Assembly: GCA_027031495.1 (NCBI GenBank) | Contig: JALVQA010000004.1 | Location: 120,070 to 184,069, forward strand | Source of the DNA: Candidatus Moraniibacteriota bacterium | GTDB taxonomy: Bacteria; Patescibacteriota; Minisyncoccia; Moranbacterales; GCA-2747515 | Length of the DNA: 64,000 nucleotides | Direction of reading: 5' to 3' | Shown here: piece after piece, positions 22,102 through 46,652 of the stretch | Numbering within the stretch: the first letter of the stretch is position 1 | Layout of the letters: each line of letters begins with the position of its first letter | Notes under the pieces: model-generated | The model's input: only the letters and a program-made list of their open reading frames with translations | Told to the model about the DNA's origin: nothing | Database searches by the model: none | Position numbers and translations under genes: made by a program

Positions 22102-22308
22102 AGAAAATGTGTTAAAAATGGATTAAAAAAACACGCAAACAACGTCCACGTGCAAAAACTACTCCGTTTCTGTTAAAGATAACAAAAACGAACAATCACA
22201 TCCAATCTTGCGTAGCCACAAGCGGGATGTATTATGGACTTTGCTTGTTTGTATAAAACTCTAGCACACTATGGACGTTTTGGCAATAGGGCTGTATGAT
22301 GAAGTGAT

Positions 22309-23823: not shown

Positions 23824-23890
23824 ATTATTTTATGGACGCTTTTTGTGAAACATGGTACTATGGAAGGGGATTTTTTATCTATATAGAGAA

Positions 23891-24847: not shown

Positions 24848-24878
24848 CTATGTTCTTACATAGCAACGGAGGAGAATT

Positions 24879-25781
24879 ATGTCAACACTTTCTATAAAAA
24901 AACGCGCTTTTTTAATGACAATCATGATTATGTTTGTGACGGTATTTAGTGTGCCGCATACTGCACATGCACAATCATGGGGTGATAATCCAGCATCACA
25001 GATCTTTAAGGAAATGCTTTCAAAGGCATCGGAGATTATTAAAGACATTCAGCATGCGTTTATTATTACGGTCTTGATTTATAGTATGGAGCGACAGATT
25101 AGTCACATTGTTGATAAGGCTGGTGGCTCAATTAGTGGTGTAAGTGGATGGCGCGACTATCTCAAAAAAGCTGATGATGTCGCAAAAGTAAAAACAAAAA
25201 ATGAACTTGCGCACTTAACGCGAGGAGGAGCGTTAAATCTTACACGTGATAATGGTGACAGTTTATCTAATCGCGTTTCTGATATTGCAAATAGCGCTCT
25301 CAGTGAAAAGAAATTTAGCAAAGTATCATCAACACGTGAGTTTTTGCGTGGTAATGTTAAGAATACGGTAAATCCAAATACGGGAAAGAGTAATGTAAGC
25401 AATATTGCTGCACTTACCGATATATTTAGTAATCCTCTCAATAATCTAATGGCTGGCCAGGTTGCAAAAGATATGTATGAGGAAATACGTGAGGATGAGA
25501 AAGAGGCGCTCATTCTAAAGCAGACCGGTTACGGTTACAATAGTAAGCGGCCAAGAGAAACTGCAGCAACAGTCGCATCATTGCGTCAAGAAACTGTTAG
25601 TACGGCATTGGAAGGTGTGACACCATTGACGAGGCCGATTATCTCTACAGTACTCAATCGTTTTATGAGCGGATTGAGTAGTAAGGTTGACAATGGAATG
25701 CAGAAAGTTATTAATGCAAAGAATGATCTCAGTGATTACTACAACAAAACTGGTAATTCCAAGCAATTTGAGCCACTATAG
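24879..25781 (+). CDS. Secreted hypothetical protein
   Basis: Signal peptide …FSVPHTAHAQ, then a hydrophilic Ser/Asn-rich 270 aa. Confidence 0.45.
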   Translation: MSTLSIKKRAFLMTIMIMFVTVFSVPHTAHAQSWGDNPASQIFKEMLSKASEIIKDIQHAFIITVLIYSMERQISHIVDKAGGSISGVSGWRDYLKKADDVAKVKTKNELAHLTRGGALNLTRDNGDSLSNRVSDIANSALSEKKFSKVSSTREFLRGNVKNTVNPNTGKSNVSNIAALTDIFSNPLNNLMAGQVAKDMYEEIREDEKEALILKQTGYGYNSKRPRETAATVASLRQETVSTALEGVTPLTRPIISTVLNRFMSGLSSKVDNGMQKVINAKNDLSDYYNKTGNSKQFEPL

Positions 25782-25813
25782 GTAATCAAAGAGAGTGGTG
25801 AGGGTGGTGGAAG

Positions 25814-25887
25814 GGGTCTGTAGCTCAGCTGGTTAGAGTGCTACATTGACATTGTAGAGGTCCCCGGTTCGAGTCCGGGCAGACCCA
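25814..25887 (+). tRNA. tRNA-Val (anticodon GAC)
   Basis: 74-nt cloverleaf folded by hand: acceptor gggtctg/cagaccc, anticodon loop ttGACat, T-loop ttcgagt. Confidence 0.85.
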
Positions 25888-25903
25888 CGTTACAATAAAA
25901 AAA

Positions 25904-25927
25904 CCATTCACATGAATGGTTTTTTAT
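25904..25927. terminator. Bidirectional terminator aaccattcacatgaatggtt with flanking A-run and T-run
   Basis: Perfect palindrome between tRNA-Val (+) and the ftsH stop (-). Confidence 0.5.
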
Positions 25928-25949
25928 AATGTCCTTTTTGTTCTGTATA

Positions 25950-27884
25950 CTACTTGATATCGTCAGGGGTGAGTTCTTTTTGTTGTGATGCCATGCTCTG
26001 CTTTTCATCTGTATTCTTTTTATTGCTATCTGTGTCAGACTGTGACTTTTTTTGCGCATATTCTTTCCCTGTCAAAATAGCTTCAAATTCCTCTTTCTCA
26101 ACAACCTCTTTTTCAAGCAATGTTTGTGCAAGTTTTTCAAGAATATCACGCTTTTGTGTAAGAATTTTTTCTGCGCGACGTTGTGCTTCCTTGATATATT
26201 GCGAAACTTTTTTATCAATTTCGTCTGCTGTACGGTCTGAGTAATCACGTTCTTCTGTGAAATCACGTCCAAGAAAGACCATCTCTTCTTTCTTTCCAAA
26301 CGTGCGTGCACCAAGATCGCTCATACCGTAGCGCGTAATCATGTTACGTGCCATGTGTGTTGCACGTTCAAGATCGTTTGATGGGCCTGTCGTCACGTCA
26401 CCGAATACAAGACGCTCCGCTGTATAGCCGCCAAGGAGGACAGAGAGTTCGTCAAGAAAATACTTTGATGAACGAAGTGTTTTGTCCTTTTCTGGTACGA
26501 GAAGTGTATACCCGCCGGCACTACCACGTGAGATAATTGATACTTTATGAACAGGATCGGCATGTTTTAGACTTGCACCAACAATGGCATGCCCACTTTC
26601 ATGATATGCAACAATCTTTGTTTCTTCTTCGTCCATACGACGACTTTTGCGCGCCGGACCCATCACCACTTTCTCAATTGCTTCTGTAATATCCTCCATT
26701 GTAATGACTTTACGATTGGCGCGTGCTGCAAGGATAGCGGCTTCATTCATGAGGTTTGCGAGATCAGCACCACTGAACCCGACAGTTCGTTGCGCAAGTC
26801 TTTCTATATTAACATCATTAGCGAGCGGTTTGTTTTTTGAGTGAATCTTTATGATTGCAGTGCGTCCTTTAATATCAGGCAAGTCTATTGTGACGCGACG
26901 ATCAAAGCGACCTGGACGCAAGAGTGCAGGATCGAGTACGTCTGGACGGTTTGTTGCGGCAATGACAATGACATTTGTATCTGACTCAAATCCATCCATT
27001 TCAACAAGAATTTGATTGAGTGTTTGTTCGCGCTCATCGTGGCCGCCACCGAGACCAGCGCCGCGCTGTCGACCTACAGCATCAATTTCATCGATAAATA
27101 TAATTGATGGTGCGTGCTTTTTTGCCTGTTTAAAAAGGTCGCGCACACGACTTGCGCCAACGCCGACAAACATTTCAACAAACTCACTACCGCTGATTGT
27201 GAAGAAGGGCACACCTGCTTCGCCGGCGACAGCTTTTGCAATTAACGTTTTACCTGTACCAGGAGGGCCGAGAAGAAGAACACCTTTCGGGATTTTAGCG
27301 CCAATTGCCGTAAATTTTTTCGGAAATTTAAGAAAGTCAACAACTTCGGAAAGCTCTTCTTTCGCTTCTTCATTCCCGGCTACGTCTTTAAAAAGTACGC
27401 GATTCTTCTTGTTTTTTGGGTCAAGCATGCGCGCGCGACTATTGCCGAATGAGAGTGCTTGTGCATTACCGCGTGTTGCACTCTTCATCATGAAAAACAA
27501 AAAGCCAATCACGATAAGAACAGGAATAAGAAAGGGTACGATGGAAAAGATGAAAATTTTTGCCGGACTATCTTTTTTGATTGTAAGGTCAATAGCTGCA
27601 AGTTTTTCGCGATCAACATTATAATTTGCAAGCGTTTCAGAAAGAGATGCGCCATCTTCTTTTATAGTTTTCTGCTTTGTTTTCTCCTTATCATTGAGCG
27701 TAATTGTAACAACGTTATCTTCAATGACAATGTTCTTTACTTTACCATCATTGATTTCCTGTACAAGGCGATTGAGACCAATCTCTTCTGGTGTTTTTTC
27801 TGGGGCACTATAGAGAAGAATTGTACCAGCAACAAAAAGAAAGAGAAAGAGAAAGTACGTTATTTTCTGGGAGAAATTTTTCAT
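25950..27884 (-). CDS. ftsH: ATP-dependent zinc metalloprotease FtsH
   Basis: 644 aa with an N-terminal TM pair, an AAA+ module ([26 protein letters not shown]) and the HEAGH Zn site (HESGHAIVG). Confidence 0.95.
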
Positions 27885-27968
27885 GATCTTGTGTTAATTT
27901 TTTTATACAACAAGTTTTTGGAATTATGCAAACAAGAGTTACTGCCGTGCATATAAAAGCGCATAGAT

Positions 27969-28925
27969 CTATGTATGCGCTCTCATGCTTACTGTACCAC
28001 CATTTTTTGTCAGAATCAAGGTGTGTGTGCGCATTTTTTGCGTTTTATTCTTTGTGCTCATAATAAGCGTGCGCCATTGTTCAATTATTTCGGATGATGG
28101 ATATGTGTGCGTGAGCATGTGTGCAAAATAACGCAATGTCATGCGCTGTAGTGATGTTGTTTGTGCAGAAAACGACGTGCTATCAAATGTAATGGTATTT
28201 TTATTCCGTGTGTATTGAATGATATTTTTTTGTGTGTGTCGCAGAAGCTCAGCATAATCGTCGCTAATATGTCGTGCTGTGCGCGCAAGTGTGGTAAGAA
28301 TGTTCGGATTATATCTCTTTTGTAGATGTGGCAGAAGATCGTGGCGAATGCGATTGCGTAGGTAGCGTATATCTGTGTTTGTTGTATCAGTGCCGTATGT
28401 GATGTTGTGTTGTGTGCAATAGCATTCAATATCAGCGCGTGTGCAATCAAGGAGTGGGCGTACAATTGTATCGCGCTTATAAGAAAGTGCCGAGAGTCCA
28501 ACAAGGCCGCTGCCGCGAATAAGGCGAATGAGCAACGTCTCAACAAGATCATTCAGTGTGTGACCGACAACAATAAAGTCAGCTTTTTGAGTAACACGCA
28601 CATCCTCAAAAAAAGCATAGCGGACATTACGCATCCATGCTTCATTCGTTGGGTGACGTGTATGAGAGAAGTCTTTTATGATAACGGGAATGCCATATGT
28701 GTGCGCAGCGTTTTCTACAATAGTGCGGTCACGTTGTGCGTCAGATCCACGAATGCCATAATGAACATGTGCGATGGTAAGCGTGTAGTGTCGTTTTTTA
28801 CAAAGACGGTACAAGATATCAAGAAGTGTCATTGAGTCTGGACCGCCGGAAACGCCGACAACAATACCTGCCTTATGCGGTAAGAGATTGTGTGTATGAA
28901 TTGTTTCAAGAACACGTTTATACAT
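27969..28925 (-). CDS. tilS: tRNA(Ile)-lysidine synthetase
   Basis: PP-loop GVSGGPDSMTLLDIL, and the typical position upstream of ftsH. Confidence 0.85.
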   Translation of the reverse strand: MYKRVLETIHTHNLLPHKAGIVVGVSGGPDSMTLLDILYRLCKKRHYTLTIAHVHYGIRGSDAQRDRTIVENAAHTYGIPVIIKDFSHTRHPTNEAWMRNVRYAFFEDVRVTQKADFIVVGHTLNDLVETLLIRLIRGSGLVGLSALSYKRDTIVRPLLDCTRADIECYCTQHNITYGTDTTNTDIRYLRNRIRHDLLPHLQKRYNPNILTTLARTARHISDDYAELLRHTQKNIIQYTRNKNTITFDSTSFSAQTTSLQRMTLRYFAHMLTHTYPSSEIIEQWRTLIMSTKNKTQKMRTHTLILTKNGGTVSMRAHT

Positions 28926-28961
28926 AAAATATGTGGAAAATGTTTTGTTGCGCCACTCCTT

Positions 28962-29534
28962 TTATGAGGAGATGAGAGTAACATCGCGATCCTTAAACGT
29001 TTTGAAGCGCTCAGGATGCTCTGTAATTTGTTTGATAACTGTGTCGGCAAGCTCTTTTGGTGAAGCGTGTTCTGAATTGAGAAATATATTGTATTGCGAT
29101 GGATCACCGATGGTGATGCCATAGTATTTCTTGTAGCGCTCAGCATTGTTTTTGTCGCGAAAGGCAAGATTTTGCATCGCTTCTTCCAGCGTTGTTTTGT
29201 CGCGCTTGACAATGCGCTGTGCACGTACGGCAAGTGGACAATCAAGATAAATGCGCACTTGGCAGTGGCAAAAGAATGCTGTAAGACGACCATCGAAGAC
29301 AGTATTGTCTTTTTTAAGGGAGTATGCACGCATACGTCGATCAATCTCGACATCAAAACGTGGGTCTTTGCGGGCAATTTTTTGAAATTCTTCCAATGTC
29401 ATGCCGGCTTCTTTGGCCATCGTACGCAAGATAAAACCACCTGAGTACGGTCCGTCCATAGAAAGACGCTCAACAATGTTTTGTGCGAGCGTGCCTTTAC
29501 CACTGCCCGATGTTCCGTCAATTGCAATGTTCAT
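28962..29534 (-). CDS. cmk: Cytidylate kinase
   Basis: MNIAIDGTSGSGKGT P-loop at the N-terminus. The start is trimmed from 29612 to the ATG preceding this motif. Confidence 0.8.
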   Translation of the reverse strand: MNIAIDGTSGSGKGTLAQNIVERLSMDGPYSGGFILRTMAKEAGMTLEEFQKIARKDPRFDVEIDRRMRAYSLKKDNTVFDGRLTAFFCHCQVRIYLDCPLAVRAQRIVKRDKTTLEEAMQNLAFRDKNNAERYKKYYGITIGDPSQYNIFLNSEHASPKELADTVIKQITEHPERFKTFKDRDVTLISS

Positions 29535-29611
29535 AAAATACTCTTTTAATTTTATTCTCAAGACAAAGTAAATCAAAACGTCCACAGTGAGGTGCGGACG
29601 TTTTGATGGCA

Positions 29612-30928
29612 TTACTTAGTTGACTTCTCTTTGGTGTCTTTTACAGATCTTTCTTTCTCCGCTTTTTCAAGAACGTCCTTTGTCTGTAAAAGGAGGCCCA
29701 TGCGGTGACTCTTCGGCTCAATTGAAAGGATTTTCCATTTATAGGTATTTCCAACGCCAATCATTTCTTCAAATTTTTTGCCGGGGTAGAGTTCGCGGAA
29801 TTCACTAACGTGTGCAAGACCATGAATATCGTTATCAAGATAAACGAACGCACCAAAGTGATTAATTTTATCAACTTTTCCTTCCACGATATCTCCGACT
29901 TTGTAACGCTCCGTGACAGTTTCCCACGGATCGCGAGCTAATGCTTTCATAGAGAGGGAAATGCGTGTATCGTCAATGCCGATAACCTTTGCTTTTACAG
30001 TGTCGCCGGTTTTTACGATGTCGCGCGGATCATCAATGAGTTGCCATGCCAATTCTGAGATATGTACAAGACCTTCAAGACATGGTCCCTTGTTTTGCGC
30101 ACCTTCTGTTGTTGGTGGAAAGAACTTTACGAAAGCACCGAATTTGACAACACCACTTACTTCACCATCTACCACATCGCCAACCTTTAGTGTAGCAAGT
30201 GCTTCGCGCTCCTTTTCGCTACCGGCAGCTTTCTCGCTGACAATCAACTTCTCTTCATCGCGATTGGCATCCAAGATGACAACGGTTAACTCTCTACCAA
30301 CAAGTTGTTTGAGCATTTCAAGGATTTTTGTCTTATCACCATCCTCTACGCGTGGGTAGTGCTCGCTGGAAAGCTGTGATACTGGTAGGAAGCCACTAAT
30401 GCCGTTAACTTCAACGATGAGACCTCCTTTGTTAGCATCAAGAATTTTTGTCTTGATCGTTTCTTTGTTCTTCGCTTTTTCTTCAAGATCGTTCCATGCT
30501 TTGTCATATGATGCCTCGCGAATGGAAAGTTCTATGTAACCGTCATCCGTCTCTGGATCAATAACGGTTGCATTAACTATATCGCCAATAGCGAGCTTTT
30601 TTGATGACATGCCGTCTTTTGCTTCACGTCCAATAACAATACCTGTGCCGAAAACACCAAGATCAAGATAAACAGTGTTTGGCGCAATGCCAATGACGGT
30701 GCCACGCACTACGTCACCAAGCTGTAGTGGTTCTGGTGATTTTTCCAGGAGCTGTTCCATGGCACTATTATGTGCCGCACTTTCTTTTGATGCCGTATTA
30801 CCTTGTTTTTGCTCCGCATCTTCTTCCTTTCTTTTTGTAGTATCAGATGCTGTTTGCGAAGACGATGCTGGTTGCGCTGTTACTTCGTCAACGATAGAGT
30901 CAAAGAGTTTATCTTCTTGTGTTGCCAT
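29612..30928 (-). CDS. rpsA: 30S ribosomal protein S1 (multiple S1 domains)
   Basis: Four or more S1/OB repeats (GDVVRGTVIGI…, GDIVNATVID…, GDVVDGEVSGV…, GDIVEGKVDKI…). The start is trimmed to MATQEDK. Confidence 0.85.
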   Translation of the reverse strand: MATQEDKLFDSIVDEVTAQPASSSQTASDTTKRKEEDAEQKQGNTASKESAAHNSAMEQLLEKSPEPLQLGDVVRGTVIGIAPNTVYLDLGVFGTGIVIGREAKDGMSSKKLAIGDIVNATVIDPETDDGYIELSIREASYDKAWNDLEEKAKNKETIKTKILDANKGGLIVEVNGISGFLPVSQLSSEHYPRVEDGDKTKILEMLKQLVGRELTVVILDANRDEEKLIVSEKAAGSEKEREALATLKVGDVVDGEVSGVVKFGAFVKFFPPTTEGAQNKGPCLEGLVHISELAWQLIDDPRDIVKTGDTVKAKVIGIDDTRISLSMKALARDPWETVTERYKVGDIVEGKVDKINHFGAFVYLDNDIHGLAHVSEFRELYPGKKFEEMIGVGNTYKWKILSIEPKSHRMGLLLQTKDVLEKAEKERSVKDTKEKSTK

Positions 30929-31186
30929 AGAAAAAAATGGTATGCGACGTGATATTTCTAAATAAAAAGCACCCGCACACAACGATAACGTGGCAGGATA
31001 TACTAACAACCGCCAACGTGTTATGTGCTGGAGCGCGACAAACATCATGTGGGATTAAAGCATCCCACGTCGCAATAATCGTTAATAATTACTTAAGTAC
31101 GTTGGGATTCTAACATACGATGGCATTTTTGACAAGTGTAAGTATTATAGCACTCTTTGGTGTGATTTAACGTTCATACACCATCT

Positions 31187-31214
31187 TTACAAAACAAAAA
31201 AAGCGTGCTATACT
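31187..31214 (+). promoter_or_regulatory. Sigma-70-like promoter TTTACA-16 nt-TATACT
   Basis: -35 tttaca at 31187-92 and -10 tatact at 31209-14. Confidence 0.4.
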
Positions 31215-31220
31215 GCCGGT

Positions 31221-31324
31221 AGTTAGTAAAGGTGATGTCGCCTGCTGATTCTGTCAGGGCGGTTATCACGACGAAAAGGGTGAATTGTGTTTTCCGCGCG
31301 GAGAACCGGTTCGCCCTTTTTTTT
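31221..31324 (+). ncRNA. Candidate ~100-nt structured RNA or attenuator leader ending in an intrinsic terminator (31278-31324), directly upstream of the giant surface-protein gene
   Basis: Nested helices gtgat…atcac and cgcc-tg…ca-ggcg, with an inner hairpin gttttccgcgcggagaac. The terminator stem gggtgaa/ttcgccc is followed by TTTTTTTT. Confidence 0.3.
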
Positions 31325-31349
31325 ATAAAAATCTTGTGAAAAATAAAGA

Positions 31350-34300
31350 GTGGTTCGCAAAAATATGCCAAAAAAAGCAATAAAAAACAAAAAACAAAGG
31401 AGATTATCACGAATATTGATGGAAACCATAACTGTTGTGATTGCTACTATTGTTCTTTATTTGCTTTTCCCGACATTGCGTAGTCTGATTGCACAGAATG
31501 TTGCTCTTATATCAAATCTTGGCAATAAAACCGAGGTTATTGACGTTGCAGATGAAATTGCCACGCAACGGTATGTACCTGAAATGCCAACGTCACTGGA
31601 GGTGCTATATGGAAATATATTAACTTATACAAATGAGGATGGCGCGACAACAAATATTGATTTGACGCCCTATCTTGACAATACCGATAATCAAACGCTT
31701 GCTCTTACGAAAAATGTTCTTTCAATCACAGGGGGTAACGACGTTGATCTTTCCACCATAAAGCTAAAATGGAGTCATATTACCGATATTCCTGACGACA
31801 TTGCTGATGGTGATGATGATACGACATATGCTGCAGGTGTAGGATTAACACTTATAAGTACACAATTTTCACTTAATGCCTCGCTCAATGATCTAACGGA
31901 TGTAAGTACGGCGGGTGCAGTGAGCGGTCAGGCACTCGTTTGGAACGGGGTGCAATGGGTGCCGTCATCTGTGAGCAGTGGTACTGCGGATACGCTTTAC
32001 ACGGCAGATGGCACAATAACGAGCAATAGAATCGTCACGATTGGTAGCAATAATCTTGCCTTTGCCGGTACTGGTATGATTGGCATTGGCATTATTAATC
32101 CAGCATACACACTTGATGTTAATGGCGACATTAACTTTACCGGCACTCTCTATCAAAATGGTACACCTTTTCCTATCGGTGCGACAAAAATTGACGACTT
32201 GTCTGATGGACAGTCAGACACAACCAATACCAATCTCTTTCTTGGGCATGCGGGCTTTAGTGGCACATTCTATAACAAGAGAAATACTGTTGTCGGCCTT
32301 GAGGCTTTCATAACAAAGAATGCGACAGCTTTTCCGCCGCCACTTTCATCTTATGCTGGCAATGATAATACAGCTATTGGTTATCGTGCACTGTCAAATA
32401 ATACATCCGGATTTTATAATACGGCAACTGGCTCATTGGCGCTTTACAATAACACAACGGGGTATGGTAATGTGGCATATGGTTTTAGGACGCTTTCTTC
32501 AAATACAACAGGGGCTCTTAATAATGCACATGGCGGCGATGCTCTCTATAATAATACAACCGGTAACAGAAACAGTGCATATGGCGCACGATCTCTCTAT
32601 AACAATATTGATGGCTCAAACAACGTTGCTGTAGGTTATGTTACCCTCTTTGGTAATACGCACGGCTCAGATAATACTGCGATCGGGTATAGTGCTCTTC
32701 ACAACAATATTGATGGCTCAAACAACGTTGCAGTAGGAAATAATGCTCTCTATAATAATACCAGCGGCTCAGATAATATCGCACAGGGTAATCGCGCTCT
32801 CTATAGCAATATTGATGGCATAGAGAATGTTGCACAGGGCGCCTACGCACTCTTCTCCAATACCAATGGATCATATAACGTTGCAATCGGTTTTGAAGCC
32901 CTCCGTTATAATCTTGGTGGTCAGAACAACGTGGCAGTAGGGCCAGGCGCCCTCCTAAGTAATTCGAATGGTAACTACAATGTTGCACAAGGAGCAAGCG
33001 CACTTCAGAACAATACAAGTGGCGACTACAACAATGCTTACGGTGCTTACGCGCTTTATAGTAATACAAGTGGCGACTACAACAATGCTTACGGTGCTTA
33101 CGCGCTTTATAGTAATACAAGTGGTACTAGCAATGTTGCACAAGGCGCTTATACATTGTATTCAAATGGAACTGGCAGTCGTAATGTTGCGCAGGGTGTG
33201 AATGTGTTACGCAACAACACAAGCGGTTACAACAATACGGCACAAGGTTTTCAATCTCTCTATGCCAACTTGACGGGTCATAACAATACAGCGCAGGGTA
33301 TATACGCACTTTTTTCCAATACGAGTGGTCGCTATAACACAGCTGTTGGCGCACAAGCGCTTTACGGTAACACAGCTGGTGAGGGTAATACAGCTGTTGG
33401 TGCGTTCACACTTGTTAATAATACAACGGGAAGTTATAGCACAGCACAAGGATACTATGCACTTCACGCAAATACGAGCGGTCTTTATAATACAGCATAT
33501 GGTGCATATACTCTTCGCGAAAATACAACCGGTAATTATAACGTAGCGGTCGGCATGCGAGCGTTAAATGATAATACAACCGGTTCTAACAATACAGCTG
33601 TTGGCGTTGATGCCTTGCGTGAAAACACAATCGGTATCAGCAATGTGGCAGTTGGTTTGGAGACACTCTATAAGAACACAAGTGGTAACTATAATGCCGC
33701 ACAGGGCGCTTATGCACTGCATGAGAATACAACCGGCTCCAACAATACGGCAACAGGTTTTCAGACGTTGTATAGGAATACGACTGGCGGTTCCAATACG
33801 GCACATGGTACGAATGCGCTCATATTTAATACAATAGGCTCATACAATACTGCGCAAGGTACGGATGCGTTGGCGACAAACTCAACGGGCAATAATAATA
33901 CGGCACAAGGTGCAAGTGCTCTCTTTAGCAACTCAACCGGCTCCAACAATACGGCAACAGGTTTTCAGACGTTGTATAGGAATACGACCGGAGCAAACAA
34001 TGTCGCACACGGCTTTAAAGCACTCTTTTCAAATACAACTGGTGCTGGCAATGCGGCATATGGTGCGAGCGCGCTCTATAGCAACACGACCGGTGCTGGC
34101 AATACGGCAACTGGTCTAGAAGCACTCTTTTCAAACACGACTGGTGGCTATAACGTCGCATATGGTTACCAGGCACTAACGTCAAACACAACTGGATCAG
34201 GGAATGCGGCACATGGTGCATGGGCACTCTATAGCAATAGAAGTGGTTCAAGTAATACGGCACAAGGTATTCGTGCGCTTTACAGTAATACAACAGGTGC

Positions 34301-36152
34301 TAACAACACAGCGCAAGGTGCCAATGCGCTTCGTATGAATACCTTTGGCTCTCATAATACCGCACAAGGCGCTAGCGCTCTCTATAACAATACAGCAGGC
34401 GCCAATAATACCGCACAAGGTGAGCAAGCACTTTATAACAATAAAACTGGTTCAAGTAATACAGCACAAGGAACACAGTCTCTCTATACAAATACAACCG
34501 GCTTTAATAACGTTGCACAAGGTGCACTTGCGCTCTTCTCAAATACAACTGGTTCTAGAAATACAGCACAAGGCTACAGAACGCTCTTTAGCAATACAAC
34601 AGGATTTAGAAATACGGCACAAGGTATAGAAGCGCTCTATAGTAACACAACCGGTCACAGCAATGTCGCGCAGGGCTCAGAAGCGCTTTACCACAATACA
34701 ACTGGTTCCTATAACGTTGCGCAGGGCTTGCAGGCTCTCTACAATAATACGGAAGGCAGTTACAATACAGCGCATGGTATGGGTGCCTTATATAACAATG
34801 CAGAAGGAAGTCATAATACTGCTGATGGTGCAAATGCACTTAGCAAAAACACAAAGGGTGAGTTTAACAGTGCAGTTGGAGCATCAGCACTCTATAGCAA
34901 CACAACTGGTAACTATAATGTTGCAGGTGGTTTCCAGGCACTTTACTCAAATGAAGGCGGTTCTTACAATGTTGCGCACGGCTATGCTGCACTGTACAGC
35001 AACATGTCTGGAAGCGGTAACGTTGCATATGGTACACGTGCGCTTCGTCTGAATACGAAAGGTGATGGCAATGTTGCGGTTGGTAGTGATGCGCTATATT
35101 CAAATGATAGTGGTTCTAGTAGTGTAGCTGTTGGGGATCATGCGCTCTACAGCAACACAACTGGTAACTACAATGTTGCGCAGGGCATGCAAGCACTGTA
35201 TAGCAACGTTGATGGATCGAATAATGCTGCATTTGGTACACGTGCACTTTTCTCGATCAAAAGTGGTTCTGATAACGTTGCTCTTGGCTTTAATGCTGGT
35301 CGCTTTATTGCCGATGGCGTAACGGCAAATGCGCTATCAGACCAAAGCATATTTATCGGTGCGAATGCAAAAGCAAATGCTGATAAAGAAACAAATCAAA
35401 TCGTTATTGGTTATAATGCAGTTGGTTTTGGTTCCGATACTGTTACTATTGGTAATGATAATATTAAAAAAACTATACTTAAGGGCAGTATTGGTATTGG
35501 TGTAACATCACCAACATATCGTCTTGAACTTCCAAATAATTCTGGTGTTGGTTCTGGGCGTGCACGTGCTTATCAATGGGCAACATACTCCGACAGTCGC
35601 ATCAAGAAAAACCAGGTCGCGCTGACAGAGGAGATTGACCCACTTGCAGTACTCGCACTTCTTACGCCAAAGACGTACATTCAATACGATTCTAGCTTCA
35701 CTGATGACGGTGAGCTCATCCTCAGCGGCAACGGTGACAAAACGTATGGTCTGATTGCACAGGAAGTTTACAATGCACGTCTTAATGGCAAGCGCATATT
35801 TGAGGGCGTCGTCTACAAGCCGGAAGACGAAAACAGTGATCTGTGGTCTCTTGATTACGAGAAATTTATTCCATTCACGATTGCCGCCATCCAAGAACAG
35901 CAAAAAAATATTACTGCCAATGCTCTCAAGATCGCTACACTATCCGATTTGACGCACCGCGTTGATGATCTTGCGCAGCGTATTCAAACAACGGATGCTA
36001 CAACAGATATTGACGCAGCTCTTGTTGCGGTCAACACAAAGATCACAGAACTCTTTGACACAACAACCACTCTTGACGGTCGCCTCACAACAGCGCACAA
36101 CGACATCGCACAACTGACACAACAACCCTCAATCCTGACACACTCGTTCTGA
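31350..36152 (+). CDS. Giant (1600 aa) repetitive cell-surface protein with a C-terminal phage-tail-fibre-type intramolecular chaperone (peptidase S74-like) domain
   Basis: N-terminal signal-anchor. About 70 tandem ~15-aa units of the form (S/Y)NT(S/T)G.(Y/N)N.A.G..AL. follow, predicted beta-helix. The C-terminus contains …WATYSDSRIKKNQVALTEEIDPLAVLALLTPKTYIQYD…GLIAQEVYN…LDYEKFIPFTIAAIQEQQ, the auto-cleaving chaperone-domain pattern. Confidence 0.8.
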   Translation: MVRKNMPKKAIKNKKQRRLSRILMETITVVIATIVLYLLFPTLRSLIAQNVALISNLGNKTEVIDVADEIATQRYVPEMPTSLEVLYGNILTYTNEDGATTNIDLTPYLDNTDNQTLALTKNVLSITGGNDVDLSTIKLKWSHITDIPDDIADGDDDTTYAAGVGLTLISTQFSLNASLNDLTDVSTAGAVSGQALVWNGVQWVPSSVSSGTADTLYTADGTITSNRIVTIGSNNLAFAGTGMIGIGIINPAYTLDVNGDINFTGTLYQNGTPFPIGATKIDDLSDGQSDTTNTNLFLGHAGFSGTFYNKRNTVVGLEAFITKNATAFPPPLSSYAGNDNTAIGYRALSNNTSGFYNTATGSLALYNNTTGYGNVAYGFRTLSSNTTGALNNAHGGDALYNNTTGNRNSAYGARSLYNNIDGSNNVAVGYVTLFGNTHGSDNTAIGYSALHNNIDGSNNVAVGNNALYNNTSGSDNIAQGNRALYSNIDGIENVAQGAYALFSNTNGSYNVAIGFEALRYNLGGQNNVAVGPGALLSNSNGNYNVAQGASALQNNTSGDYNNAYGAYALYSNTSGDYNNAYGAYALYSNTSGTSNVAQGAYTLYSNGTGSRNVAQGVNVLRNNTSGYNNTAQGFQSLYANLTGHNNTAQGIYALFSNTSGRYNTAVGAQALYGNTAGEGNTAVGAFTLVNNTTGSYSTAQGYYALHANTSGLYNTAYGAYTLRENTTGNYNVAVGMRALNDNTTGSNNTAVGVDALRENTIGISNVAVGLETLYKNTSGNYNAAQGAYALHENTTGSNNTATGFQTLYRNTTGGSNTAHGTNALIFNTIGSYNTAQGTDALATNSTGNNNTAQGASALFSNSTGSNNTATGFQTLYRNTTGANNVAHGFKALFSNTTGAGNAAYGASALYSNTTGAGNTATGLEALFSNTTGGYNVAYGYQALTSNTTGSGNAAHGAWALYSNRSGSSNTAQGIRALYSNTTGANNTAQGANALRMNTFGSHNTAQGASALYNNTAGANNTAQGEQALYNNKTGSSNTAQGTQSLYTNTTGFNNVAQGALALFSNTTGSRNTAQGYRTLFSNTTGFRNTAQGIEALYSNTTGHSNVAQGSEALYHNTTGSYNVAQGLQALYNNTEGSYNTAHGMGALYNNAEGSHNTADGANALSKNTKGEFNSAVGASALYSNTTGNYNVAGGFQALYSNEGGSYNVAHGYAALYSNMSGSGNVAYGTRALRLNTKGDGNVAVGSDALYSNDSGSSSVAVGDHALYSNTTGNYNVAQGMQALYSNVDGSNNAAFGTRALFSIKSGSDNVALGFNAGRFIADGVTANALSDQSIFIGANAKANADKETNQIVIGYNAVGFGSDTVTIGNDNIKKTILKGSIGIGVTSPTYRLELPNNSGVGSGRARAYQWATYSDSRIKKNQVALTEEIDPLAVLALLTPKTYIQYDSSFTDDGELILSGNGDKTYGLIAQEVYNARLNGKRIFEGVVYKPEDENSDLWSLDYEKFIPFTIAAIQEQQKNITANALKIATLSDLTHRVDDLAQRIQTTDATTDIDAALVAVNTKITELFDTTTTLDGRLTTAHNDIAQLTQQPSILTHSF
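33010..33129 (+). repeat. Perfect 60-bp tandem duplication inside the giant gene (two units)
   Basis: acaagtggcgactacaacaatgcttacggtgcttacgcgctttatagtaat occurs twice back-to-back. Other 45-55 bp internal repeats occur at 32609/32706 and 33735/33940. Confidence 0.75.
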
Positions 36153-36217
36153 CAGACAGCGACGGCAACGTTACACTCAACGGCATCCTCACAGCACAGA
36201 AGGTAAAAGCTGATGAG

Positions 36218-36697
36218 GTGGAAACCGCAAAAATCACCATCGTTAACAACGACGATGCGCCAACCGTTGGCACAGCTGTGATCCCTGCCGGCAAGACAAG
36301 TGTGACGGTGGAGACGGAGGCTGTGAGTGAGGATAGTCGCATTCTTGTTACTTTTACAAGTGATTTGAAGGGGCGTAGTTTCTACGTGTCTGATCGTAAC
36401 GATGGTTCGTTTACCGTAAATATTTCTAGAACATTTACAACAGATGAGAGTACTTTTGATTGGTGGGTTGTTAATGCAGATGTGCCGTCGGATATGTTTA
36501 GTAAGGATTCAGATGATTCGTCATCTGAATCCGGTGATTCTGCCGTTATTGTCGATGAGTCAGGCGATAATTATGATGATGAGTCTGGTACTGATGATAA
36601 TGGCGGCACTGATGACAGCGTTGACACTGATGCTGTTGATGTGACGGGCGATTCTGTGGAAGGTGATAGTGACAGTTCTGCTGAAAGTGGTGTATAA
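36218..36697 (+). CDS. Beta-rich domain + highly acidic Ser/Asp-rich tail. It may be a 3' continuation of the giant gene, because its frame is open from 36119
   Basis: GTG start as given in the ORF track. The same frame is open for 33 codons upstream, overlapping the last 11 codons of the giant ORF. Confidence 0.4.
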   Translation: METAKITIVNNDDAPTVGTAVIPAGKTSVTVETEAVSEDSRILVTFTSDLKGRSFYVSDRNDGSFTVNISRTFTTDESTFDWWVVNADVPSDMFSKDSDDSSSESGDSAVIVDESGDNYDDESGTDDNGGTDDSVDTDAVDVTGDSVEGDSDSSAESGV

Positions 36698-36777
36698 TAC
36701 TGGTTGCAATAGTGCTTATTATGCAAATGCGTGGTAAATGATCATTTTGTTTATAGTATAAATCAAAATAAAAGTGT

Positions 36778-37584
36778 ATGGTGCACAGAAAGCGACGACG
36801 AGCAATTATTATTTCAATCTATGGCGTGATGGTATTTGCACTCATATGGTTTATTGTTGATGCGTTTCGTCCTGCGCCATCGTGTAGCGATGGGAAGAGG
36901 AATCAGAATGAAATAGGTATTGATTGTGGCGGTGTTTGTAAGCCATGTCCAGTTAAGATTTCCGCTGAACCATTAAAGATTGACAGTGCATATGTTGTCG
37001 ATGGTGTTGACAATAGAGTTGATGCTGTGGCACAGATCACGAATCCAAATCCTCTCTTTGGTGCGCACTCTGTTCAATACGTTTTCCGCCTCAAAGATAA
37101 AGACGGTGCAATTGTTGCGGAGCGCAAAGGATCAACGTTTATTTTACCATCGGAAACAAAATATGTGATAGAGTTAGGTATTCGCGGGTCTGACAACGCT
37201 CGTATTGTGTCTGCGGACTTTACCATTACCGATGTTGTGTGGCAGTCATTTAATAGCTATCAAGAACCCCGCATTGTTGTACTTAATAAGACATATTCCG
37301 TTGTACACTCTGATACGGCATACAGTCGCGTAACGGGTCTCATACGTAATGAGAGTGGTTTTGATTTTGCTTCTATTTATGTAAATGTTGTACTAAAAGA
37401 TCAAAACGGTGTTCCTGTGGCTGTTCATCGTACACGTCTTGATACCATTGACAGTGGTATGGAACGAGAGTTTTCTTTGCCGTGGCCACAACGTTTTTCT
37501 GGTGATGTTGCAACGGTTGATGTTGATATAGAAGCAAACGTTTTTGATGTTGATAATTATCGCAGGAAATATATATCTGATTAA
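36778..37584 (+). CDS. Membrane-anchored hypothetical protein
   Basis: 268 aa with an N-terminal signal-anchor IIISIYGVMVFALIWFIV and a Cys-containing extracellular region. Confidence 0.5.
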   Translation: MVHRKRRRAIIISIYGVMVFALIWFIVDAFRPAPSCSDGKRNQNEIGIDCGGVCKPCPVKISAEPLKIDSAYVVDGVDNRVDAVAQITNPNPLFGAHSVQYVFRLKDKDGAIVAERKGSTFILPSETKYVIELGIRGSDNARIVSADFTITDVVWQSFNSYQEPRIVVLNKTYSVVHSDTAYSRVTGLIRNESGFDFASIYVNVVLKDQNGVPVAVHRTRLDTIDSGMEREFSLPWPQRFSGDVATVDVDIEANVFDVDNYRRKYISD

Positions 37585-37618
37585 GTAAGGATGGGATAGT
37601 GGCGATTGAGAAATTGGC

Positions 37619-38728
37619 GTGAAGTATAATATGGGAAAATTTGCACAGTTTGATTGGATTCTTATAACGGCAATATTTCTCTTGTTGGGATTGAGTATTC
37701 TTGAACTATACAGTATTTCTCTTTCGCAGGATGTTTCTGTAAATTATGCGCAGCGGCAGGGTATTTTTGCCTTGGTTAGTGTTGCTGTCATGTTCTTTTT
37801 GTCTTCAATGGATTATCGTGTTATTCGCAGAAGGCATACACGTATTCTTTATTTTGGAACATTATTTTTATTGGGGCTTGTGCTTGCTATTGGTACAAAT
37901 GTACGTGGTACAGTTGGCTGGATCGTGATTGGACCATTTTCTTTACAGGTTGTTGAATTTGCAAAAGTTGCTATTATTATATTTCTTGCCGGCTTTATCG
38001 CTGCAAAGCAGACAGTTTTCGGATCTGGTGGTCGCCTTGTTGTGTCGCTCATTCTTGTTTTTATTGTTGTTTCTCTTATTTTGGCACAACCTGATTTTGG
38101 AAGTGCAATGATATTGCTCTCTGTGTGGTTCGGCATGCTCTTTGTATCTGGTATGCGCCGTACACATATTATTGCAATGGTATTTTCTCTTATTGTTGTT
38201 AGTATTGGCACGTGGTTTTTCCTTGCAGACTACCAACGCGATCGTGTGCGTGCATTCATAGATCCATACATAGATCCATATGGTAGTGGCTATAATGTTA
38301 TTCAGGCAATGATAGCAGTTGGTTCTGGTGGTGTGATGGGTAAGGGACTTGGACATGGCACACAGACGCAACTTGGCTTTTTGCCAGAGAGCCATACAGA
38401 TTTTATTTTTGCTGTGATTGCAGAAGAATTCGGTCTTTTTGGTGCACTTTTTGTTATTGTGCTCTTTGGCATTATTCTCTTTCGCCTGTGGCGTATTGCT
38501 CTGCGCGCACCGACAAATTTTAGTTACTTGATTGTGAGTGGCGTGATGATCATGATATTTGTACAAGTCGTCATTAATGTTGGTATGAATATTGGTATTA
38601 TGCCTGTAACGGGTATCCCGCTACCATTTGTCAGTTATGGCGGTAGTTCGCTCTTGGCAAGCAGTATCGCTATCGGCATTGTACTTTCTATTGATCGTAT
38701 AACACGTCGCACACAAGACTTTGTGTAA
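37619..38728 (+). CDS. ftsW: FtsW/RodA/SpoVE-family peptidoglycan glycosyltransferase (SEDS)
   Basis: 10-TM SEDS layout with conserved segments …QPDFGSAMIL…, …GSGYNVIQA…VGSGG…GKGLG…Q…LPE.HTDFIF…. Confidence 0.85.
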   Translation: MKYNMGKFAQFDWILITAIFLLLGLSILELYSISLSQDVSVNYAQRQGIFALVSVAVMFFLSSMDYRVIRRRHTRILYFGTLFLLGLVLAIGTNVRGTVGWIVIGPFSLQVVEFAKVAIIIFLAGFIAAKQTVFGSGGRLVVSLILVFIVVSLILAQPDFGSAMILLSVWFGMLFVSGMRRTHIIAMVFSLIVVSIGTWFFLADYQRDRVRAFIDPYIDPYGSGYNVIQAMIAVGSGGVMGKGLGHGTQTQLGFLPESHTDFIFAVIAEEFGLFGALFVIVLFGIILFRLWRIALRAPTNFSYLIVSGVMIMIFVQVVINVGMNIGIMPVTGIPLPFVSYGGSSLLASSIAIGIVLSIDRITRRTQDFV

Positions 38729-38789
38729 CGCACTATTGCGGTTGTGTGTAAAAATAGTGTATGGTAGAAATGTAGGTAATTAAATCACA

Positions 38790-40193
38790 GTGAATATTAT
38801 GGCAGCAACGAGAGCGAGTGCAAGTATTGATACGCTTGTAGCTTTTGCAAAACGACGTGGCTTTGTTTTTCTATCCAGCGAGATTTACGGTGGCTTTGCG
38901 GCAGTCTATGATTACGGTCCGTACGGTGCGCTGTTGGCACGCAATATTCGCGATGCGTGGTGGCGCGCGATGGTACAAGAACATGCAAATATCGTTGGTT
39001 TGGATAGTAGTATATTTATGTCGCCACGTGTGTGGGAGGCGTCGGGACATGTTGCAAACTTTAGTGACCCGCTTGCAGAGTGCAAGCGGTGTCACACGCG
39101 CGTGCGGGTGGATCACCTACTGGAAGTGGCAGGTGTTTTTGCGGACGAGAAAATGAGTGATGAGGAAATCAATGTGTTATTGCGAGAAAATAAGGAAAAG
39201 GTGCGGTGCCCACAGTGCGGTGGGAGTGATTTTAGTGATGCAAAAGCATTCAACTTGCTTGTGCAGTCAAACCTCGGCAACTTTACCGGTGACTGGAACA
39301 AGCAGCCGACATATTTGCGCGGTGAGACGTGTCAGGGAATTTATGTAAACTTTAAGAATGTGTTGGATACGGCGCGTGTCAAAGTACCGTTTGGTATTGC
39401 ACAAATTGGCAAGGCATTCCGTAACGAAATCACTGCACGGCAGTTTATTTTCCGCAAGAGGGAATTTGAGCAGATGGAAATGCAGTACTTTGTTGCGCCA
39501 GATGCGATGATGGATGCATACAAAGAGTGGCGTGCAAAACGCTGGCATTTCTATACGGAAACACTCGGCTTTCGCAAAGAAAACATTCGTTGGCACGAGC
39601 ATGAAAATCTCGTCTTCTACGCCAAAGCAGCGCACGACATTGAATACTGTTTTCCGTTTGGCTTTAAGGAGTTGGAAGGTGTGCATGCACGTGGTGACTA
39701 CGATTTGATGCAACATATGAAGGCATCTGGCGTTGATCTGATGTATCGTGATCCACAGACAGGGGAGAAGTATATTCCACATATCGTGGAGACATCTGTT
39801 GGTGTGGATCGGCTGTTTTTAGCAGTACTCACGGAGGCATACGAGGAAGAAGATCTTGGCGAAGGTAAGACGCGTACGGTTCTGCATTTGCCAAAGGTGC
39901 TTGCGCCAATTACAGCGGCGGTCTTTCCACTCATGAAGAATAAGCCTGCACTGGTAACAAAAGCGCGAGAAGTTTTTGATATGTTGAGCGCACAATATAT
40001 GTGCGAGTTTGATGATAATGGTAATGTTGGCAAGCGCTATCGTCGACAAGATGAGATTGGTACGCCGTATTGTGTGACAATTGATTTTCAGACGCTAGAG
40101 GATAATACCGTGACGGTGCGCGATCGTGATACGATGCATCAAGAGCGTGTAGCAATAGATATGATAAGTGAGTACATTCGTAAGAATAAATGA
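38790..40193 (+). CDS. glyQS: Glycine--tRNA ligase (alpha2, class II, GlyQS type)
   Basis: SEIYGGFAAVYDYGPYG…, motif 2 FRNEITARQFIFRKREFEQMEMQYF, a zinc-binding CxxC…CxxC insertion and a C-terminal anticodon-binding domain. Confidence 0.9.
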   Translation: MNIMAATRASASIDTLVAFAKRRGFVFLSSEIYGGFAAVYDYGPYGALLARNIRDAWWRAMVQEHANIVGLDSSIFMSPRVWEASGHVANFSDPLAECKRCHTRVRVDHLLEVAGVFADEKMSDEEINVLLRENKEKVRCPQCGGSDFSDAKAFNLLVQSNLGNFTGDWNKQPTYLRGETCQGIYVNFKNVLDTARVKVPFGIAQIGKAFRNEITARQFIFRKREFEQMEMQYFVAPDAMMDAYKEWRAKRWHFYTETLGFRKENIRWHEHENLVFYAKAAHDIEYCFPFGFKELEGVHARGDYDLMQHMKASGVDLMYRDPQTGEKYIPHIVETSVGVDRLFLAVLTEAYEEEDLGEGKTRTVLHLPKVLAPITAAVFPLMKNKPALVTKAREVFDMLSAQYMCEFDDNGNVGKRYRRQDEIGTPYCVTIDFQTLEDNTVTVRDRDTMHQERVAIDMISEYIRKNK

Positions 40194-40220
40194 ATAAAAA
40201 GTTAATTTTTAGAGAGGATT

Positions 40221-41645
40221 ATGACGTATATTTCTTTTAAAAAAAGTGCGCAAAAAACAGCTGTGCGTATCATGTGGAGCGCTGATGTTGCCGCACCTGT
40301 TGTAGAGAGGCGCGGGGATCGTACACTGTTAGTTTTGCCACGTCGTACGGAAAAAGTAGAACGAGTAGAGTGGGTGCATCAATTGCGACGCGGTCTTCGG
40401 ATGGCAATGCAATATGGTTATGATTCTGTTGAGATTGACTTTGATGCAATTGTTCCCCAGAAAGAAGTAAGGGAAGAGTATGCGCGTCTTGCCGGTGTGC
40501 ATACAGCTTTAGCAAATTATGATTTTACGCATTACAAAAAGCATGATGATAATGGCAAGCGTGTCAAATTGCGCTCCGTTTGCTTTGTTACAACGCAATC
40601 GGATGTGCGTGTGTTAAATACTCTCGCACAATGGTGGCACATTGTCGGGGAGAATGCTAATGAAGCACGCACGCTTGCAAACACACCTGGTTCTGATATG
40701 ACGCCGGCGGCTTTTGCAACAGCAACACGACGTCTTATGCGCAGTATGCCACGTGTGCGTGTGCGTGTGCTAACGTCGGCACAAATGCGTACAGCACGTC
40801 TTAATGGTGTGTTGGCTGTCGGGCGCGGTAGCAGTGCAACGCCACGTTTTATCATCGTTGAATATCGTGGCAAGGATATGCATACATCATCAAAAAATAC
40901 AATAAAAGGTGACACGATTCTTCTTGTCGGTAAGGGCGTGACGTTTGACAGCGGTGGGATTGATGTAAAACCATACCCACACGCTACTGATATGATGATG
41001 GATATGAGTGGTGGCGCTGCTGTGCTTGCTGTTGTGCGTACTGCAGCGCAACTTGGCATAAAGCAGAATGTTGTCGCGCTTATACCAGCTGTTGAAAATA
41101 TGCCATCCGGTAGCAGTTTTCGTCCTGGTGATATTCTGACTATGCATAACGGTACAACTGTAGAGGTGCGCAATACTGATGCAGAAGGGCGACTTATTCT
41201 TGCGGACGCGCTATCCTATGGACAAAAACACTATGCACCATCGCTTATTATTGATGTTGCAACGCTCACCGGCGCATCACTTATTGCGTTGGGACAGCAG
41301 GCGAGTGCTGTGCTGTCGCCAAGTGAAGAACTTTCTCACATTATTGCGCGCTGCGGTGAAGACATTGTCGATCGTGCATGGCCACTGCCATTATGGTCAT
41401 CATATGATGCAATGCTCAAGAGCGAGGTAGCTGATATTGCAAACTTGGCATCGACCGGACAAGATCGCTATGCTGGAACAATTACTGCTGCCGCATTCCT
41501 CAAGAAGTTTGTTGATATTGATAACGTACAGTGGGTACATATTGATATGGCACCACGTATGACGGCAACAAAAGACGAAGGATTGGCATATGGTGCGACA
41601 GGCGCACCGATTGCATTATTATTGCGTTATCTTGAAACGTTATAG
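40221..41645 (+). CDS. pepA: Leucyl aminopeptidase (M17 family)
   Basis: VGKGVTFDSGGIDVKP and NTDAEGRLILAD signatures. Confidence 0.9.
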   Translation: MTYISFKKSAQKTAVRIMWSADVAAPVVERRGDRTLLVLPRRTEKVERVEWVHQLRRGLRMAMQYGYDSVEIDFDAIVPQKEVREEYARLAGVHTALANYDFTHYKKHDDNGKRVKLRSVCFVTTQSDVRVLNTLAQWWHIVGENANEARTLANTPGSDMTPAAFATATRRLMRSMPRVRVRVLTSAQMRTARLNGVLAVGRGSSATPRFIIVEYRGKDMHTSSKNTIKGDTILLVGKGVTFDSGGIDVKPYPHATDMMMDMSGGAAVLAVVRTAAQLGIKQNVVALIPAVENMPSGSSFRPGDILTMHNGTTVEVRNTDAEGRLILADALSYGQKHYAPSLIIDVATLTGASLIALGQQASAVLSPSEELSHIIARCGEDIVDRAWPLPLWSSYDAMLKSEVADIANLASTGQDRYAGTITAAAFLKKFVDIDNVQWVHIDMAPRMTATKDEGLAYGATGAPIALLLRYLETL

Positions 41646-41701
41646 GATAATGTTTATGAAATAAAAACACCGCCATCCTAAGAATAGCGGTGTTTTTATT
41701 G

Positions 41702-43540: not shown

Positions 43541-43688
43541 ATTTTTTGATATTTCCTCTTAGTTTTGTGTGTACGATAACGCGCTCTTCGCAGTGGCAAA
43601 ATGTTTCTACGTTTCATTATATCACAGTGTAGAAAAATTGTGTTATAGTGTCTATGAAATTATATATTTTTTAAATAGTATGTTTGTT

Positions 43689-44969: not shown

Positions 44970-44976
44970 AGGTAAT

Positions 44977-45969: not shown

Positions 45970-45976
45970 ATCAAAT

Positions 45977-46648: not shown

Positions 46649-46652
46649 GACA

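Follow-up and report, generated by a model that had tools for sequence, protein, structure and literature searches.

A locus at 31,350-36,697 of the 64,000-nucleotide (nt) stretch of Candidatus Moraniibacteriota bacterium contig JALVQA010000004.1 analysed here (hereafter the window, to which all coordinates refer) raises the question whether a very long open reading frame (ORF) and the short, out-of-frame ORF that follows it represent two genes, one gene expressed by recoding, or one gene that has been broken. The first of them, ORF1 (31365..36152), is the body of a giant fibre gene as it stands in the record; it runs from ATG 31365 to TGA 36150-36152 and encodes 1595 amino acids (aa). The second, ORF2 (36218-36697), lies in the -1 frame relative to ORF1, and its product, a 159-aa protein annotated by NCBI from GTG 36218, has been deposited (P0001), with no encoding contig on record. 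All features of the gene described below are on the plus strand. Both the position of the ORF1 stop and the change of frame had been recognised in an earlier reading made from the DNA letters and their translations (the sequence-only reading), which also proposed that the two ORFs belong together. The analysis indicates, with a probability of about 0.8, that 31365-36697 is one ancestral fibre gene interrupted by a small frame-breaking lesion, and neither a case of recoding nor a pair of genes.

The assignment of both ORFs to one gene follows from three observations: the two domains that are separated in the window lie in one frame elsewhere, the closest relative is continuous across the junction, and the codons in front of the annotated GTG are conserved. 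The domains in question are an intramolecular chaperone/autoprotease of the Peptidase_S74 type (S74) near the end of ORF1 and a C-terminal beta-sandwich domain (CTD), which extends in the -1 frame from LNPDTLVL to FDWWVV (36128..36472), so that the annotated GTG 36218 falls inside it. A degenerate DNA pattern for G...IPAG ... F[DN]WW, applied to the GTDB species-representative genomes, returned 69 loci, 44 of which encode the CTD. An S74 profile built in the course of this work matches eight of these 44, and all eight carry S74 and CTD in a single ORF. The same arrangement is found in L076, the one, distant locus recovered by a protein scan of metagenomes for the CTD, which brings the number of loci with both domains in one ORF to nine out of nine. 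In addition, Pfam S74 was detected in 8 of 10 CTD representatives scanned (6 of 8 among those of at least 495 aa), and in P0051, P0053, P0054, P0055, P0060, P0066, P0087 and P0098 it precedes the CTD by approximately 100-300 aa within one chain.

When the fusion of ORF1 and the CTD frame is reconstructed, the closest relative, L006, matches it in a single high-scoring segment pair with 42% identity over 385 aa, rising to about 70% in the CTD. Its reading frame passes through the junction without interruption (...DLAQLT-DTLAQIQEQNTTILDFF-QTLNPDTLVLTDSDGN...) and continues into an acidic Asp/Thr-rich tail. As for the codons in front of the GTG, the -1 frame is open from 36077, not from 36119 as had been thought, and comprises 206 codons, with no ATG, GTG or TTG between 36077 and 36217. 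The residues encoded there, LNPDTLVL (36128-36151) followed by TLNGILT, overlap the last codons of ORF1. Two JGI homologues (P0002 and P0003) start with MLTINPDTLVF... and align with this segment upstream of GTG 36218, and LNPDTLVLTDSDGN..TLNGILT is conserved in P0002, P0003, L006, L044 and P0197. When the 30 codons before the GTG were compared with those of L006, 12 were identical, 11 differed by synonymous substitutions only and 7 by nonsynonymous ones; hence, the -1 frame is protein-coding upstream of the annotated start.

The position of the break can be delimited closely. Frame 0 is coding up to ...NDIAQLT, which aligns with ...SDLAQLT of L006, and the -1 frame is coding from LNPD; therefore, the switch must take place within 36116..36128 (...ACA CAA CAA CCC T...), the sole interval that joins frame 0 (...AQLT) to the -1 frame (LNPDTLVL...). 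This agrees with the shift near caacaaccc postulated from the sequence alone. A CCC run at 36126-36128 falls inside the interval, and insertion of one nucleotide into it would yield ...TQQPLNPD... (TQQPLNPDTLVL) and a protein of 1777 aa, while deletion of two nucleotides at the break would yield ...TQQLNPD..., to be compared with ...FFQTLNPD... of L006. Compared with L006, the DNA of the window lacks 49 nt (3n+1) at this point, a difference that does not define the exact event, the length of the coiled coil being variable among homologues. Relative to intact relatives, the lesion would thus amount to a net length difference of 3n+1 nt. A perfect 13-nt direct repeat, TGACACAACAACC, is present at 36056-36068 and 36115-36127, 59 nt apart, with the second copy on the break itself; read in frame 0, the first copy encodes Asp-Thr-Thr-Thr, and so does the second when read in the -1 frame.

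A second, independent assembly of the sample, available from ENA (ERZ23491057), bears on the origin of the break. It agrees with the window at 100% identity over 19612-33784, 33934-36103 and 36297-48728, and the only two segments of the locus which it leaves uncorroborated are 33785-33933, where it has a gap of 100 N, and 36104-36296, where scaffold_693 ends (at 36103) and scaffold_1377 begins (at 36297). The first of these segments is flanked by an exact 55-nt repeat, and the second contains the frame break. A break of the ENA scaffolds at precisely this place would be expected if the more contiguous assembly carried a consensus error or if two alleles were present, and less expected if the sequence were clean and fixed. 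Most likely, the last ~190 codons are out of frame owing to a small sequence lesion or error, and the break itself may stem from an error of consensus calling or assembly, may represent one of the alleles in a polymorphic population, or may be a real mutation of recent date. Accordingly, where the sequence-only reading offered a programmed or an erroneous frameshift, the latter, widened to include a real lesion, remains the best reading.

Several observations weigh against a broken gene. L003, the one other locus found with S74 and CTD in different frames, also requires a -1 shift to join them, which for two random lesions is a 1-in-2 coincidence, tempered by the position of the L003 break about 25 codons further upstream and in unrelated sequence. 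The -1 frame of the window is open over its 206 codons, the low-complexity tail included, so that a real lesion would have to be recent, or the region would have to be still translated. A run of three C residues is an unusual spot for an Illumina consensus error. Finally, the ORF1 product is absent from the protein database by exact look-up, though P0001 is present. In favour of a fragile spot, on the other hand, the frame is disrupted on other metagenome contigs of the fibre family as well, namely by the frameshift of L003 and the out-of-frame join of L075.

Among the alternatives, a true on/off or length polymorphism, in which intact and lesioned alleles of a variable surface-fibre gene coexist in the population, survives best, and we consider it possible, if somewhat unlikely. 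The ENA assembly stops at the break and resumes beyond it as it would at an unresolved variant bubble, the exact 55-62-nt repeats within the fibre gene favour rearrangement, and the break coincides with one copy of the 13-nt direct repeat. However, the assembly break is equally explained by low coverage or by a paralogous repeat, and the C3 run is shorter than slipped-strand phase variation of the classical kind would require. Moreover, no second allele was retrieved: a pattern scan of metagenomes with a variable gap gave 0 matches to a second copy of the junction, and the database holds no proteins nearly identical to the products of the fibre gene.

Two real genes, a fibre gene ending at 36152 and a separate gene for a 159-aa beta-sandwich with an acidic tail starting at GTG 36218, are very unlikely. 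Such an arrangement corresponds to the NCBI annotation (P0001), leaves the core strands of the sandwich (model residues 50-119) downstream of the GTG, can call on an AAGG motif 14 nt upstream of that codon, and would be in keeping with the many short proteins in the database that consist of the CTD only. Nevertheless, a start at 36218 would sacrifice the 30 conserved codons in front of it, which are under purifying selection and include two predicted strands but no start codon, and in the closest relative, L006, the two parts are fused. The short CTD entries that were checked turned out to be artefacts: the contig of L074 starts 26 nt before the domain, which makes it a contig-edge fragment; in L075 (ENA ERZ23495238 scaffold_69544, positions 1-800) the N-terminal region of a related fibre is joined out of frame to the CTD, through a large deletion or because the assembly has collapsed; and in L003 S74 and CTD are in different frames, while its near relative P0064 is continuous. 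The separate GTG-initiated gene of the sequence-only reading is thus not upheld.

A programmed -1 ribosomal frameshift near caacaaccc, which would produce two proteins, one terminating at 36152 and a longer one with the CTD and tail, is hardly credible. In its favour, the frames do stand in a -1 relation, shared by L003, and the -1 frame continues past the ORF1 stop with the CTD frame intact over all of its codons. Against it, no X_XXY_YYZ heptamer occurs in 36105-36150 (zero-frame codons CTG ACA CAA CAA CCC TCA ATC CTG), no stimulatory RNA is apparent in 36105-36230 (-22.9 kcal/mol, with a mean of -22.87 for shuffled sequences; z=-0.01), relatives do not share the split (all nine two-domain loci and P0051, P0053, P0060, P0066, P0087 and P0098 are in frame), and L003 breaks elsewhere, at a position that is not homologous. 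Use of TGA as a sense codon (code 25 or code 4) was also considered and rejected: TGA terminates 11 long ORFs of the window, and read-through in frame 0 misses the CTD frame.

With one interrupted gene as the preferred reading, its domains can be taken from the C-terminus backwards. The AlphaFold2 model of the CTD is a beta-sandwich (pLDDT 87.5), in agreement with the beta-rich segment that had been noticed in the downstream ORF. Foldseek relates it to the C-terminal domains of tailspikes, namely those of Pam1 (7eea), K64-1 S2-4 (9k4a), the K1 lyase (7w1c) and Sf6; the probability is 1.00 for 7w1c, 7eea and 9k4a (TMq 0.43-0.47), and the superposition on Pam1 7eea has 32% identity over 72 columns with a root-mean-square deviation of 2.5. 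The corresponding Pfam family K1-lyase_C (PF24146) scores 20.4 bits (E=7e-4) against a cut-off of 27, and the precomputed annotation of P0001 lists PF24146.3. A profile search with the CTD returned 1549 cluster representatives at E<=1e-3 among 1.84 billion, and in almost all of them the domain sits at the extreme C-terminus, in host proteins of up to 3902 aa. The CTD is thus a conserved domain at the end of long proteins, and the model predicts a tailspike-type fold for it.

Among the 44 genome loci that encode the CTD, Patescibacteria-type lineages account for 23 labels, 'uncultured Gammaproteobacteria' for 15 and other names for a few. The CTD also ends very long ORFs in metagenome-assembled genomes (MAGs) labelled 'uncultured Gammaproteobacteria' (the 15 loci just mentioned), Saprospiraceae, Caldithrix and Thermoplasmatales archaeon (among L062, L011, L036, L064 and others). 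Either the family is wider than Patescibacteria or some of the contigs are mis-binned. The degenerate DNA pattern that found the 44 genome loci detected no CTD in IMG/VR viral contigs. Behind the CTD, the window encodes an acidic Asp/Ser-rich low-complexity tail (36473..36697) that closes with a TAA stop; its 74 aa after FDWWVV include 20 Asp and 16 Ser, exactly the kind of acidic tail that had been described. In L006 and L044, the nearest relatives, the CTD is likewise followed by a comparable tail rich in Asp and Thr, and most other members of the family end 0-3 residues past the CTD.

The S74 core occupies 35586..35903 and carries the motifs Y-S-D-S-R-I-K-K, GLIAQEV and AIQEQQ, with a Ser-Lys dyad formed by Ser1409 (at 35589) and Lys1414 (at 35604) in the motif S1409-D-S-R-I-K1414. 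On the single ORF1 sequence, Pfam PF13884 (Peptidase_S74) remains sub-threshold at 18.1 bits against a gathering cut-off of 22 (E=0.0034), phmmer searches of the S74 region and of ORF2 as single sequences against the PDB gave coiled-coil or noise matches only, and there is no NCBIfam model for either part. The homologues are more informative. PF13884 is present in 40 of the 47 found with the last 276 aa of ORF1, and in an alignment of 12 sequences (A2) the S, D, R and K of Y-S-D-S-R-I-K-K and the G, A, Q and E of GLIAQEV are invariant. A profile built from this homologue alignment, with the window sequence first, matches solved chaperones: the S16 long tail fibre 6f45 (2e-18), the tail fibre 8jov (9e-6), MYRF ICA 7dc3 (2e-5) and the neck-appendage chaperone 3gud (2e-3). 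On account of the homologues, the profile matches and the dyad motif, and despite the low score of the single sequence, the C-terminal module of ORF1 can be accepted as a member of S74, at the family level. The chaperone module of the auto-cleaving endosialidase and tail-spike type, which the sequence-only reading had recognised and for which it had suggested a profile comparison with S74 domains, is thereby substantiated.

Directly before the chaperone lies the neck with its capping-loop motif GSIGIGVTSPTYRLELP (35484..35534), which is conserved in homologues. For S74 fibres the motifs S-D-x-x-x-K and, for the capping loop, V-G-G/N-pi-x-x-P-x-x-x-L have been defined (Caulton et al. 2024, PMC10769870), and both IGIGVTSPTYRL (aa 1376-1387), just before the chaperone, and IGIGIINPAYTL, in the N-terminal part of ORF1, conform to the latter. 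Behind the chaperone core follows a Thr/Asp/Leu-rich, coiled-coil-like stalk (35904..36128) ending in ...NDIAQLTQQP, which aligns with the coiled-coil stretch of L006 and shows weak similarity to the coiled coil of the P22 gp26 needle. One homologue, P0009, continues past S74 in frame into a different C-terminal extension (...LDLNNFDLNNIRAITSV...HVPKIETKDLYVENGITT...) with a Ser/Thr/Pro-rich tail; more than one type of extension past the chaperone therefore exists.

At the other end of the gene, the open frame 31350-36152 comprises 1600 codons with GTG 31350 as the first possible start, and ATG 31365 is the most plausible one; it opens a Lys/Arg-rich N-terminus followed by a hydrophobic segment. 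This segment, ILMETITVVIATIVLYLLF (31413..31469), consists of 19 residues (aa 17-35) and, judged by eye, is a putative signal-anchor or signal peptide; the homologue P0051 has the same N-terminal layout.

The shaft consists of 58 tandem repeats of 17 aa (32367..35324, aa 335-1320). The sequence-only reading had counted about 70 degenerate repeats of 15 aa, but both Tandem Repeats Finder (TRF) and a repeat search give a period of 51 nt. Anchored on N-x-A-x-G, the repeats number 58 and are consecutive, in perfect register and free of indels, with the consensus N-[TV]-A-x-G-x-x-A-L-[YF]-S-N-T-[TS]-G-x-x, in which Ala3, Gly5 and Gly15 are invariant (58/58) and Asn1, Leu9 and Asn12 are kept in 56-57 of the 58 copies. 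At the DNA level, the supposed perfect 60-bp tandem duplication is a tandem repeat of other dimensions, a 62-nt exact match at offset 51 that makes up a 113-nt perfect run of the 51-nt unit (33012-33124). Where several 50-bp repeats had also been reported, exact repeats of at least 25 nt are limited, apart from this run, to a 55-mer (33730-33784 and 33934-33988, offset 204) and a 29-mer (offset 102).

An AlphaFold2 model of 12 repeats, computed from a MAFFT alignment (A5) of other repeat windows of the same protein, in which overlapping windows place identical segments slid onto each other and which is not a clean in-register alignment, is a beta-solenoid in which each repeat makes one turn (pLDDT 93.8, pTM 0.88). 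The giant beta-helix-repeat protein foreseen from the sequence is thus recognisable as a predicted beta-solenoid behind a putative N-terminal anchor. Foldseek found no close solved structure for the model in the PDB (best E=0.044), and its template modelling (TM) scores against predicted viral structures (BFVD) are 0.66-0.86. The repeats share 43-47% identity over 408 aa with the tail fibres of Pelagibacter phages HTVC111P and HTVC112P and match PHROG virion-structural and tail-spike families with E values of 1e-132 to 1e-178; this type of 17-aa repeat is common among virion fibres. The identity of a trimeric autotransporter with a YadA head was rejected: the full ORF1 protein has no Pfam match to YadA_head/Hep_Hag at E<=0.1 and is without a C-terminal membrane anchor. 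PF05658 does occur in P0005, a homologue of the S74 part.

The product of the intact gene would be a trimeric cell-surface fibre resembling a phage tail fibre. By analogy with characterised S74 proteins, among them phage endosialidase, phage tail fibres and the mosaic adhesive trimer (MAT) fibres of Bdellovibrio bacteriovorus (PMC10769870), it may after export be retained in the membrane through the N-terminal hydrophobic segment. The S74 chaperone would then nucleate trimerisation and the folding of the neck and of the 58-turn shaft, as it does in its family, and the shaft would measure about 28 nm at 4.8 Å per turn. Finally, the Ser1409-Lys1414 dyad, present as a motif, would cut the chain before Ser1409 and release the chaperone together with the coiled coil, the beta-sandwich CTD and the acidic tail. 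The break in the record falls between the coiled coil and the CTD, so that ORF1 stops at 36150 and leaves the CTD and tail in the -1 frame, without a usable start. Since the lost part lies downstream of the cleavage site, a mature fibre would be possible even if the lesion were real, provided that the chaperone works without the CTD. A role of the fibre in attachment to other cells or surfaces is plausible.

To our knowledge, the MAT proteins of Bdellovibrio are the only experimentally studied set of chromosomal surface fibres processed by S74, and they are the closest described cellular analogue of the fibre predicted here. For these proteins, which have an S74 subgroup that includes Bd3182, a role in the recognition of other cells has been proposed (Caulton et al. 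2024, PMC10769870). Both are chromosomal, non-phage, long fibres, trimeric and with an N-terminal export signal (as predicted in the present case), with a beta-helical shaft, the capping loop described above and a C-terminal S74 chaperone/protease with the SDxxxK motif, and the neck region weakly matches the tip of Bd2133 (PDB 8ond, which covers the tip only). The differences concern the organism, many members of the present family being labelled as Patescibacteria, the very regular solenoid of 58 x 17 aa, and the C-terminus: the MAT tip is either S74 or a beta-sandwich that replaces it (PMC10769870), whereas here, as in the family at large, S74, coiled coil and beta-sandwich succeed one another in one chain.

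Compared with the S74 chaperones of phages (K1F endoNF, T5 pb1, the GA-1/phi29 neck appendage and the S16 long tail fibre) and with MYRF ICA, ORF1 shares the S-D-x-R-x-K dyad motif, the G-x-IAQE helix, the position after a trimeric beta-structure and profile-level matches to solved members. However, the phage chaperone ends the chain, while in the reconstructed gene it is followed by ~75 aa of coiled coil, the beta-sandwich and the acidic tail; in addition, the single sequence stays below the Pfam gathering score, and the gene lies outside a phage context. The sandwiches of tailspikes and depolymerases (PF24146; Pam1 7eea; Klebsiella K64-1 S2-4 9k4a; Sf6) superpose on the CTD and likewise end the chain, yet they cap a catalytic beta-helix directly and stay in the mature trimer, whereas the CTD here lies behind the point of S74 cleavage and would be set free. 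The 17-residue repeat type, in turn, is shared with the fibres of HTVC111P/112P, of Methylophilales phage Venkman ('FhaB-like adhesion protein') and of Bodo saltans virus, all of which are virion proteins, unlike the present gene with its putative membrane anchor and its chromosomal place among housekeeping genes.

In practical terms, the annotation should treat the 1595-aa protein and the 159-aa 'hypothetical' as a single, interrupted gene; what has been deposited as a 159-aa protein is part of a C-terminal domain. Chromosomal surface fibres that derive from phages and are processed by S74 form a growing set, of which the gene is a further and, with its 58 turns, very regular case. As for the frameshift, it is probably of little biological interest. 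A mildly unusual feature of the architecture is the tailspike-type sandwich behind the S74 cleavage site, from where it would be removed along with the chaperone; the arrangement recurs in several large cellular proteins, and no literature on S74 followed by a sandwich in cellular proteins was found in the searches made. A more far-reaching interpretation, which must be regarded as distinctly unlikely, would see in S74 - coiled coil - beta-sandwich - (acidic tail) an undescribed class of cellular fibre, abundant in Patescibacteria-labelled and some other MAGs, whose chaperone frees a structured trimeric module (e.g. a secreted lectin-like or cap factor), with the break as a population switch that uncouples fibre and module.

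The genomic context of the fibre gene is that of a chromosome. On its 5' side the minus strand encodes ribosomal protein S1, cytidylate kinase (Cmk), TilS and FtsH, and on its 3' side are genes for an FxLYD-domain protein, FtsW/RodA, a class II aminoacyl-tRNA synthetase, leucyl aminopeptidase (PepA) and M16 peptidases. According to the annotation of the neighbours, no phage genes flank the locus, and a prophage context was ruled out given these housekeeping neighbours and 0 PHROG matches for a neighbour or ORF2. Just 5' of the fibre gene, a consensus scan showed a possible promoter, TTTACA-17-TATACT, with an upstream TG (31186-31214, plus strand); about 85 nt past it and before the start of the gene, there is a GC hairpin followed by a T8 run (31298-31322, plus strand). 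The two elements could belong to a leader/attenuator or a small RNA, and 31186-31322 has no match to an Rfam family (best E=0.24). The FxLYD-domain protein (268 aa, 36778-37584) is encoded directly 3' of the fibre gene.

Other parts of the window deserve a brief mention. Three successive plus-strand ORFs at 22309-25781 encode proteins of 504, 331 and 300 aa, which may form a cluster of secreted or surface proteins; the middle one (331 aa) contains bacterial TSP3 (calcium-binding) repeats, and the other two are without a Pfam family. A minus-strand ORF of 612 aa (41702-43540) likewise has no Pfam family and shows only a weak, glycine-rich, collagen-like similarity. The segment 60001-64000, which in addition to ORFs without Pfam matches holds a gene for a PP2C-type phosphatase (61382-62299), has a G+C content of 0.54-0.57, as against 0.38-0.49 elsewhere in the window.

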